A program made the position numbers and the translations under genes. The notes beneath the pieces are model-generated. The model saw only the letters and a program-made list of their open reading frames with translations. It was not told the DNA's origin and made no database searches. A stretch of DNA of 9,484 bases from a virus (Duplodnaviria > Heunggongvirae > Uroviricota > Caudoviricetes), in IMG/VR virus record IMGVR_UViG_2695420821_000007. One strand, 5' to 3'. This document shows positions 4,547 to 6,924 of this stretch, one piece after another (the stretch's first letter is position 1; each line of letters starts with the position of its first letter).

Positions 4547-4557
4547 NNNNNNNNNNN
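4547..4557. other. Assembly or scaffold gap (11 N)
   Basis: Run of 11 n characters; unique sequence before it, restart of the repeat after it. Confidence 0.99.
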
Positions 4558-5575
4558 TCAGTACCTGGTGATCGAGTTTTTCGCCCACGGCCTCTTCCCA
4601 GGTCTCGCCCAGCGTGGTGTTCACAAAGGTTTTCAGGCCGTTGGGATCTTTCAGTGCATCCAGCCAGTCATAGACAATCTGTACCCAGGTGGTGAACGGA
4701 CTGTACGCCGTCCAGATATGGAACGTGATGGAGCGCGGCGGCGGAATTTCATCACCCCGGGCGCTGAAAAACGTCAGACCGTCACGGGTCCACATGCCCG
4801 TGTTTTCACAGATCCACCGCCCGTTGCTCTGGTCAAGCTCAGACTGATGGATCACGCAGCCATGATGTTCACAGAGGTAGAAAACACTTTCAGGGCTGTC
4901 CTTCTCCCATTTAAGCCCAAAAGGCGTGGACTCATCGCCAAATTTCAGATACTGCGCCTCCCCACAGTGCGGGCAGGGCACATAAAAACGCATAAAATGC
5001 GCCGACTCGTTAGCGGCTTTTTCGATCTGGCAGGTGCCTTTGATTTTAGGCGTCGAGCCGCGAATGGATTTTGGCCACACCGACCCCTCAATACGCTTAT
5101 CCCCCAGCAGGGTTGGCGAGCCCTCTTTTTCGACATCCGGCTCGAACGAGGAAAGTTCGTCATAGCAGACCACGTCCACGGATTTTTCACGGTAGTTTTT
5201 GGCGGCAGCGCCGCCCAGGCACCAGAAACCGACGCCCGATGAAAAGCGTTTCAGCGTGAGAGTATTGTCACGATGTTTACGACCCAGCCATGGGGAAAGG
5301 TCTTTCAGGCATGGCACGTTCCGAATCGTCGCCTCCACGTGAGACTTCATAAAATCTTCAGCGGCAGAATCCGTGGGCTGAAAAAGCAGACTGTTTCGGG
5401 ATTTATGCTCAATAAAATACCCGACCACCCCCAGCAACATCTTTGTATAGCCAACACGGGCAGATTTAATCAGGTTAACCGTGAGAACCTGGTCGTTACC
5501 CATACAGTTCATAATGGCGATCTGGAACCTGTCGGATCGCCGGAAAGGACCCACGAAAATGATAATAATTATCAT
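4558..5575 (-). CDS. Terminase large subunit fragment (copy 2), N-terminally truncated and cut at its 3' side by the N gap
   Basis: Translation identical to the copy-1 terminase ORF (ORF track 4541..5575). Confidence 0.7.
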
Positions 5576-5729
5576 CTACATGAGGTTTATCACGACATGT
5601 GTGTACGCCATCAAACCACGAGAAATAATCAATTATTACGCAGGTATCGTATTAATTGATCTGCATCAAATTAGCGTAAAAGCAACTTCAGATAATACAA
5701 ATCAGCAACACTGAATACGGGGCAACATT

Positions 5730-5954
5730 ATGTCATCAAAGAACAGAACCCGCAGAACAACAACCCGCAACATCCGATTTCCAAACCAGATAATTGAACA
5801 AATTAACATCGCTCTTGACCTGAAAGGTTCAGGTAATTTTTCAGCGTGGGTTATTGAAGCCTGCAGAAGAAGATTAATTAATGAAAAACATGCTCAATTT
5901 GTACCCAACAAAGACAAACACGACCAGAGCACCTGTTCAGACAGGTTTACTTAA
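5730..5954 (+). CDS. RHH DUF3950-like protein (copy 2)
   Basis: Protein identical to 1596..1820. Confidence 0.65.
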   Translation: MSSKNRTRRTTTRNIRFPNQIIEQINIALDLKGSGNFSAWVIEACRRRLINEKHAQFVPNKDKHDQSTCSDRFT

Positions 5955-5972
5955 ACGACTTATATATGACAC

Positions 5973-6002
5973 AAAAAGCGACCACTAAAGTCGCTTTTTC
6001 TT
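5973..6002. terminator. Bidirectional terminator (copy 2)
   Basis: Same hairpin as 1839..1868. Confidence 0.55.
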
Positions 6003-6035
6003 ATGGTAACAGGCAATAACTCTCTCAGATATTTT

Positions 6036-6350
6036 TTAGCATTTTTTTGACCGCGCGTTTCCGGACGTATTCTGTTCTCCTGTCCCTTTATATCGTCGGA
6101 ATACCCGCCGCTCTTCAAATCCCATTCCCAACTCAGAATGTAGTCTGTTGACCGCTTGTTTTATTTCGGTCAGGTTCACCGGTGAAACCGGAGTCCGGCG
6201 CGCCTTACGCAAACACTCTGCTCGTTTCTGTGCCGCCACTTTTCTTTTCTGGTCATCACTTAGCTGTACCATCACTTTTGCCCATCGTTCAGCTGCTCTC
6301 CGGTACAGTCCTTTTTTCTCCAGACATTCTGCCACGTGATCATGTAGCAT
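6036..6350 (-). CDS. PerC-family regulator homolog (copy 2)
   Basis: Protein identical to 1902..2216. Its upstream region carries the copy-2-specific variants. Confidence 0.55.
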   Translation of the reverse strand: MLHDHVAECLEKKGLYRRAAERWAKVMVQLSDDQKRKVAAQKRAECLRKARRTPVSPVNLTEIKQAVNRLHSELGMGFEERRVFRRYKGTGEQNTSGNARSKKC

Positions 6351-6812
6351 AAGTGACCTCCGATTATCTACAGACTGCCATCCTGAATTTACCTTCCCTT
6401 AATGAAATAACAATAAAAAACAAACCACGCAAAAACAATAAAACAACATACAAAAAAACTAAATAATAAAAAAATAATCACCTTATTTTATTATTTTTTA
6501 AGGGAGCAATTACTGAACAAAAAACGCTGACTATATACTCAAAACCAAACAACTATTCTGCCAATCAGGTATCATGGCAACACACGGAATTACCGTGTTT
6601 TTGCCTTCTCTGCCCATACAATACGGGCATATACTTCATACTCTATTGTAATATTTCTATCCATGTGCCCCACTCTATTTACCTGTAAATAATATTCAAA
6701 ATATTTATCACAGAAATCGTTTTTGGCCATGAACTGAGCACACTATAAAGTCCGGAACTGACTCTTTGTTAAATTACCTTAACGTTACCAGTAACACCTT
6801 CATAACAAAACA

Positions 6813-6913
6813 TCACGGTATACACTGGGTACGGATATATTCCTGTGCTCCTTCCAGTTGCTTCTGCATTGCCATCAGCCGTTCTCTGAGGATGAAATAA
6901 TCCCGTTCAGCGG
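6813..6913 (-). CDS. Rz: Rz 3'-terminal fragment (copy 2), cut by the N gap
   Basis: Corresponds to 2682..2782 of copy 1. Confidence 0.6.
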
Positions 6914-6924
6914 NNNNNNNNNNN
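6914..6924. other. Assembly or scaffold gap (11 N)
   Basis: Run of 11 n characters, followed by a restart at the same repeat position as after the first gap. Confidence 0.99.

Follow-up and report, generated by a model that had tools for sequence, protein, structure and literature searches.

The window, i.e., the complete stretch of 9,484 nucleotides analysed here, contains one prophage module three times over, and the copies are separated by short runs of N. Judged from the sequence, this triple repeat is very probably a short-read scaffolding artefact and not a real gene arrangement. The isolate would carry several near-identical lambdoid prophage late regions which the assembler could not distinguish. 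Its output would have been three pieces which overlap (1-4546, about 414/424-2782, about 414/424-2983), each of which stopped at the first disagreement between co-resident alleles. A greedy scaffolding or gap-closing step would then have linked them in head-to-tail order, separated by short runs of N. The true locus is most likely one defective prophage remnant beside potB-potA-pepT, as it is found in a sister isolate, and a second allele would have been supplied by other lambdoid prophages of the genome. The biology of this DNA is that of an ordinary decayed lambdoid prophage remnant, nothing else.

Architecture of the repeats

The window has exactly two N runs of 11 nt each (Table 1). The 19-mer TCAGTACCTGGTGATCGAG is located at 424, 4558 and 6925, in the latter two cases directly 3' of a gap. 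An initial annotation had remarked that each restart is preceded by exactly 11 N and that both gaps lead back to an identical point, position 424 of copy 1; both remarks are correct. It had also stated that the same 2.36-kb segment appears three times. The repetition as such is evident, but copy 2 differs slightly from copy 1, and copy 3 extends 201 nt beyond copy 2. In BLAST comparisons between the N-delimited segments, segment B is 99.618% identical to positions 424-2782 of segment A, with 6 mismatches and 2 gap openings. All differences between copies 2 and 1, i.e., six substitutions and three deleted bases, lie within copy-1 positions 2310-2545 (6444-6676 for copy 2). Segment C is 100% identical to positions 424-2983 of segment A over 2,560 nt, and a separate repeat search gave a concordant result. 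Copy 3 ends only where the window and the public record end. Repeats of more than 2.3 kb with 99.6-100% identity are far beyond chance.

The spacings of the repeats are unequal, 4,134 and 2,367 nt. The left flanks of the two joints differ (4546 and 2782), and the right flank (424) is common to both. The equal units and the one novel joint of a tandem duplication are not found here.

Table 1. Features of the window and of related records. Coordinates refer to the window unless another locus is named.
Feature	Position	Strand	Remarks
Segment A	1-4546		largest of the three segments; late region of a defective lambda-like prophage, genes mainly on the minus strand
Gap 1	4547-4557		11 N
Segment B (copy 2)	4558-6913		copy of 424-2782 with a second allele at 2310-2545
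Gap 2	6914-6924		11 N
Segment C (copy 3)	6925-9484		exact copy of 424-2983
terL', 5'-truncated gpA-type terminase large subunit	1-1441	-	runs off the left window end; Pfam GpA_ATPase 2.1e-53, GpA_nuclease 3.1e-52
844-bp deletion junction	1392-1393; again at 5526-5527 and 7893-7894		2-nt microhomology (AA); from comparison with intact prophages
YlcI/YnfO (DUF3950)	1596-1820	+	Pfam DUF3950 1.3e-17; annotated in L001
PerC-family regulator	1902-2216	-	Pfam PerC 3.8e-44
AT-rich intergenic stretch, allele bubble	2310-2545		all copy-1/copy-2 differences; GC 32-37%
Rz spanin	2682-3149	-	Pfam Phage_lysis 2e-48
Rz1, embedded in Rz	2744-2929	-	Pfam Rz1 1.7e-21
Phage lysozyme (R)	3641-4174	-	Pfam Phage_lysozyme 1.5e-24
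YdfR (DUF1327)	4225-4546	-	Pfam DUF1327 1.6e-40; first 23 nt lost to gap 1
323-aa product	4541-5512 (L192 3973-4944)	-	across an N gap
334-aa product	6875-7879 (L192 1606-2610)	-	across an N gap; translation contains XXXX
16.7-kb deletion junction	L002 3489-3491 / L191 ~3491		sister contig CYBX01000039.1

A repeated unit of this size might be taken for a mobile element, an insertion sequence or transposon which inserted three times. Apart from the repetition itself nothing points in this direction. No inverted repeats of at least 40 nt were found in the window. The genes of the unit are terL', DUF3950, PerC and Rz' according to Pfam, and a transposase domain is absent. The boundaries of the unit are inside the terL and Rz reading frames. 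On the grounds of gene content, inverted repeats and boundaries the mobile-element reading was rejected; it has next to no probability. This agrees with the earlier view that the pattern is not that of an insertion sequence, and with its placement of 424 inside a terminase frame and of 2782 inside Rz: the gpA-type terL frame was confirmed, and so were Rz and Rz1. The Rz gene in fact contains both stops, that of copy 2 at the equivalent of 2782 and that of copy 3 at the equivalent of 2983.

When reverse-complemented, the window is identical to the complete record CYCJ01000071.1 (9,484 nt), a part of the E. coli draft assembly GCA_001285625.1. Hence the composite had been deposited in this form as a draft scaffold and is no product of windowing. 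The proposal that homologous loci had been concatenated deliberately is not needed, the window being one accessioned WGS record. CYCJ01000071.1 has EMBL-style identifiers and Prokka-like product names. The window had no match in phage or plasmid collections, a search for the N-gap pattern returned nothing from viral, GTDB-genome and metagenome collections, and none of the IMG/VR loci fetched for comparison contains an 11-N run.

Segment ends and allelic differences

Copy 2 represents a second allele. At all sites within 2310-2545 segment B carries the allele of a phage remnant on the IncFIB plasmid NZ_CP027545.1 (locus L003), to which it is 100% identical in this stretch; copies 1 and 3 carry the other allele. 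Consequently, the sample contained no fewer than two alleles. L003 is located at 94.0-96.7 kb of this conjugative plasmid, a PerC-Rz-lysozyme-YdfR phage remnant between IS3 and ISEc20 elements. Because of the complete identity with the plasmid remnant, the second allele of the isolate could be plasmid-borne.

The positions at which the segments terminate are most informative. Segment B follows L003 at 99.9% up to its very last base, and the next differences between A and L003 are at 2783 and 2784. Segment A ends at 4546; the equivalent of 4547 is A in L001, the closest complete-genome prophage, and C in L003. The end of segment C, which is also the record end, corresponds to 2983; position 2984 is T in segment A and C in L001, L003, L004 and L005. 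All three right-hand ends (4546 and the equivalents of 2782 and 2983) are the last base before an allele SNP. Of about 2,720 aligned positions, 81 (~3%) distinguish segment A from L003, and the chance that three ends each adjoin such a difference is ~3e-5. For a polymorphism panel we also collected 89 related loci, taken from IMG/VR and from reference genomes. In this panel position 2783 is polymorphic in 9 of 79 loci, 2984 in 13 of 80, and 4547 in 5 of 44. About 12-13% of the sites are polymorphic at that level, which puts the chance for the three ends at ~2e-3. Next to the left window end (position 1) the panel shows no polymorphism. Assembly-graph unitigs or majority-rule extension yield pieces which terminate exactly on the final base common to co-resident copies. 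For real recombination joints there is no reason to coincide with the sites of allele SNPs.

Finished genomes and a sister isolate

The two sides of each gap were butted together and used as adjacency queries, and halves within ~700 bp of each other were counted. The adjacency of 4546 to 424 was found in 0 of 5,426 complete E. coli genomes, that of 2782 to 424 equally in 0 of 5,426.

A sister contig, CYBX01000039.1 (25,198 nt, GCA_001283665.1), which is identical with the IMG/VR UViG 2695420394_000010, is 100% identical to window positions 1-2979. In the 13,350 nt of this contig which were examined (L191) there is no N and no internal repeat. The contig continues with the rest of terL, gpJ', lom, a tail fibre gene, NleB and an EspK-like gene, and then enters potB, potA, pepT and roxA. 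With one copy, no N and a continuation into chromosomal genes, the locus is single-copy in that isolate. CYBX01000039.1 starts at segment A coordinate 2979, four bases from the end of copy 3, i.e., both assemblies break beside SNP 2984.

These data bear directly on the possibility that the window shows three true head-to-tail copies of a cos-deleted module which arose by recent local amplification, with the N runs as unreadable joints and the SNP coincidences as chance. Two points can be raised in its favor. All three copies have the same unusual 844-bp deletion junction described below, and joins made by a scaffolder normally require some read-pair support (PMC5320598). Yet the junction is more than 900 nt away from the nearest allele difference, and therefore a walk through the assembly graph can reuse it in any copy. 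Further, amplification is at odds with units of 4,134 and 2,367 nt, with two left flanks and one right flank, with three right ends on allele SNPs (p ~3e-5 to 2e-3), which is unlike real recombination joints, with the absence of both adjacencies from 5,426 complete genomes and with the single locus of the sister isolate. We consider amplification highly improbable. The initial annotation had likewise argued against a true tandem duplication, and the unequal spacings, the different left flanks and the SNP-adjacent ends bear this out. Its suggestion that, in a multi-copy prophage module, contigs had broken at branch points of the repeat graph is well in line with the SNP-adjacent ends, the second allele, the lack of both adjacencies in finished genomes, the single copy of the sister isolate and, as a fifth result, the gap-crossing gene calls of the public record.

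The restart point and the length of the N runs

Position 413 is a common SNP site, with polymorphism in 25 of the 38 panel loci. It is located exactly 11 nt upstream of the restart point 424, and this distance equals the length of the N runs. Position 423, the base immediately ahead of the restart, is not polymorphic among 38 panel alleles; hence the restart can be explained only by a trimming step or by an unsampled allele. SSPACE inserts a single n as a placeholder. In certain reference-guided scaffolders the minimum gap is 11 N; none of our claims rests on this. The true start of the reused piece would be 414, right after SNP 413, and this piece would have been joined to the preceding one via a one-base placeholder. 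Ten nt would then have been lost to edge trimming and never refilled, so that 1 + 10 = 11 N. GapFiller by default trims 10 nt from each gap edge and enlarges the gap (PMC3446322). In the Wellcome Sanger pipeline Velvet assembly is followed by SSPACE and GapFiller, tools which the authors call greedy and which, by their account, can produce false joins (PMC5320598). A one-N gap plus the 10-nt GapFiller trim may thus account for the 11 N and for the restart at 424; we propose this tentatively, including the identity of the joining software. This sub-step has no bearing on the main conclusion of an artefact.

Alternatively, three contigs may have been strung together by pasting, with a constant 11-N spacer and without linkage evidence, be it by the submitter, in a pseudo-molecule or in a reference-ordering step. 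The identical length of both gaps would fit, and the pieces are nested and redundant, as separately assembled copies of a repeat would be. Then again, this is one 9.5-kb entry among many contigs, unlike a whole-genome pseudomolecule, and pasting leaves the equality of the N run and the distance to SNP 413 unexplained. We regard it as improbable. Even so, pasting is an artefact as well, and the biological conclusion is the same as under the scaffolding explanation.

The terL region around the restart point deserves a separate remark. Three E. coli TerL proteins at NCBI (P0001, P0005 and P0006 of 742, 730 and 617 aa, respectively) have internal tandem duplications of ~90-100 aa. The duplication boundary is 9-12 residues past the residue which corresponds to window position 424 (...DHQVLMDKVVRYTA...). 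Either this is a recurrent assembly-duplication site in multi-prophage E. coli or the duplications are real.

Gene content and decay of the prophage

If an 844-bp deletion is set aside, segment A shares 99.6% identity with prophages of complete E. coli genomes. Matches to the module are present in 5,116 of the 5,426 complete E. coli genomes; the number of places per genome has a median of 3 and reaches 17. A look-up of the lysozyme matched only widespread complete genomes. The YdfR coding sequence of L001 comprises 11069-11413, and the match with the window stops at 11390. The start of the terL' open reading frame at 1441 is former cos-flanking DNA; in the sister record the terL' coding sequence CTU99797.1 starts at the residue equivalent to window position 1378. 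The exact 582-aa terL' product is on record. RNA families were not found in segment A with Rfam, and the composition profile shows nothing unusual except AT-rich intergenic DNA.

The deletion comprises 844 bp (L001 7394-8237). They are missing from all three copies and from the sister contig and are present in every intact relative. The loss comprises the cosN 12-mer (L001 8223-8234; AGGTCGCCGCCC in window orientation), cosB, the entire Nu1 gene and 165 nt (55 codons) from the start of terL. The sequence at the junction is GGCGATCTGGAA|CCTGTCGG. This junction is absent from the 5,426 complete E. coli genomes, from GTDB representative genomes and from JGI metagenome contigs, and all 40 panel alleles which span the deletion site break there. 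A search of viral, GTDB-genome and metagenome collections with the junction brought up the sister contig alone. The junction is present in two assemblies, CYCJ01 and CYBX01. Since these are separately assembled isolates, the junction is very likely real DNA.

The retained right side of the junction begins 3-5 bp inside the would-be right cohesive end of mature phage DNA, an end which we placed with the lambda termini as a guide. By chance, an endpoint would lie at most 5 bp from the cos nick with a probability in the region of 1%. With one breakpoint so near to the nick, the deletion might be the scar of a chromosomal cos cleavage by terminase followed by end joining, an origin which we consider less likely than not, though more plausible than the amplification.

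A second deletion of ~16.7 kb is present in the sister contig. It joined gpW to the C-terminal part of gpJ, again with a 2-nt microhomology (TA). After both deletions the sister remnant consists of terL', gpJ', lom, tail fibre, NleB and the EspK-like gene beside potB-potA-pepT-roxA. With cosN, cosB, Nu1 and the start of terL gone and gpW fused to gpJ, the element is a decayed remnant which cannot be packaged. Another NleB-prophage remnant (L197; CP051001.1, GCA_000618005.3; ~10971-12300) has a different deletion, which extends from inside Nu1 as far as the tail-fibre genes. The NleB-carrying prophage family seems to decay repeatedly by deletions which start near cos or Nu1.

Consequences for the deposited record

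The gene calls of CYCJ01000071.1 run across both gaps and yield products of 334 and 323 aa. Taken from its annotated start, the open reading frame across gap 2 is found in a single deposited contig, CYCJ01000071.1 itself; read from a longer start it is not on record. Chimeric gap-spanning proteins in which terL is fused to Rz or YdfR fragments are by now part of public protein collections. The initial annotation had called the gap-crossing open reading frames artefacts, and the gene calls over N gaps with XXXX in their translations show that this was justified. It had further warned that gene dosage and synteny cannot be trusted here, a warning which we share. Copy number, gene dosage, synteny and the 334- and 323-aa products of CYCJ01000071.1 should be disregarded.

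Comparison with known systems

The closest biological counterparts are the late regions of lambda-like, cos-type prophages of EPEC/EHEC-like E. coli, for instance that of the NleB-carrying prophage of NZ_CP148578.1, with 99.6% identity. The order of genes is the same: YdfR, lysozyme, Rz/Rz1, PerC, YlcI, then cos and Nu1 in the intact phage, and gpA-type terL. In contrast to these prophages the window is devoid of the 844 bp with cosN, cosB, Nu1 and 55 terL codons, and the sister contig additionally lacks the 16.7 kb from gpW to gpJ. Measured against a functional lambda-like cos prophage, the lysis cassette of lysozyme and Rz/Rz1 is present according to Pfam; the cosN 12-mer is absent from the window, as are Nu1 and 55 codons at the start of terL.

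With a genuine tandem duplication or amplification the window shares the direct head-to-tail repeat of a multi-kb unit. It differs in its unequal units, its two joints, the N at these joints and the ends on allele SNPs. The window resembles mis-scaffolded or over-replicated repeats in short-read bacterial drafts of the Velvet/SSPACE/GapFiller type: one repeat is reused with N in between, the pieces end where the repeat copies differ, and the gap edges are consistent with the 10-nt default trim of GapFiller (PMC3446322). Piece ends exactly on allele SNPs, combined with an N run equal to a trimming constant, are diagnostic of such an artefact.
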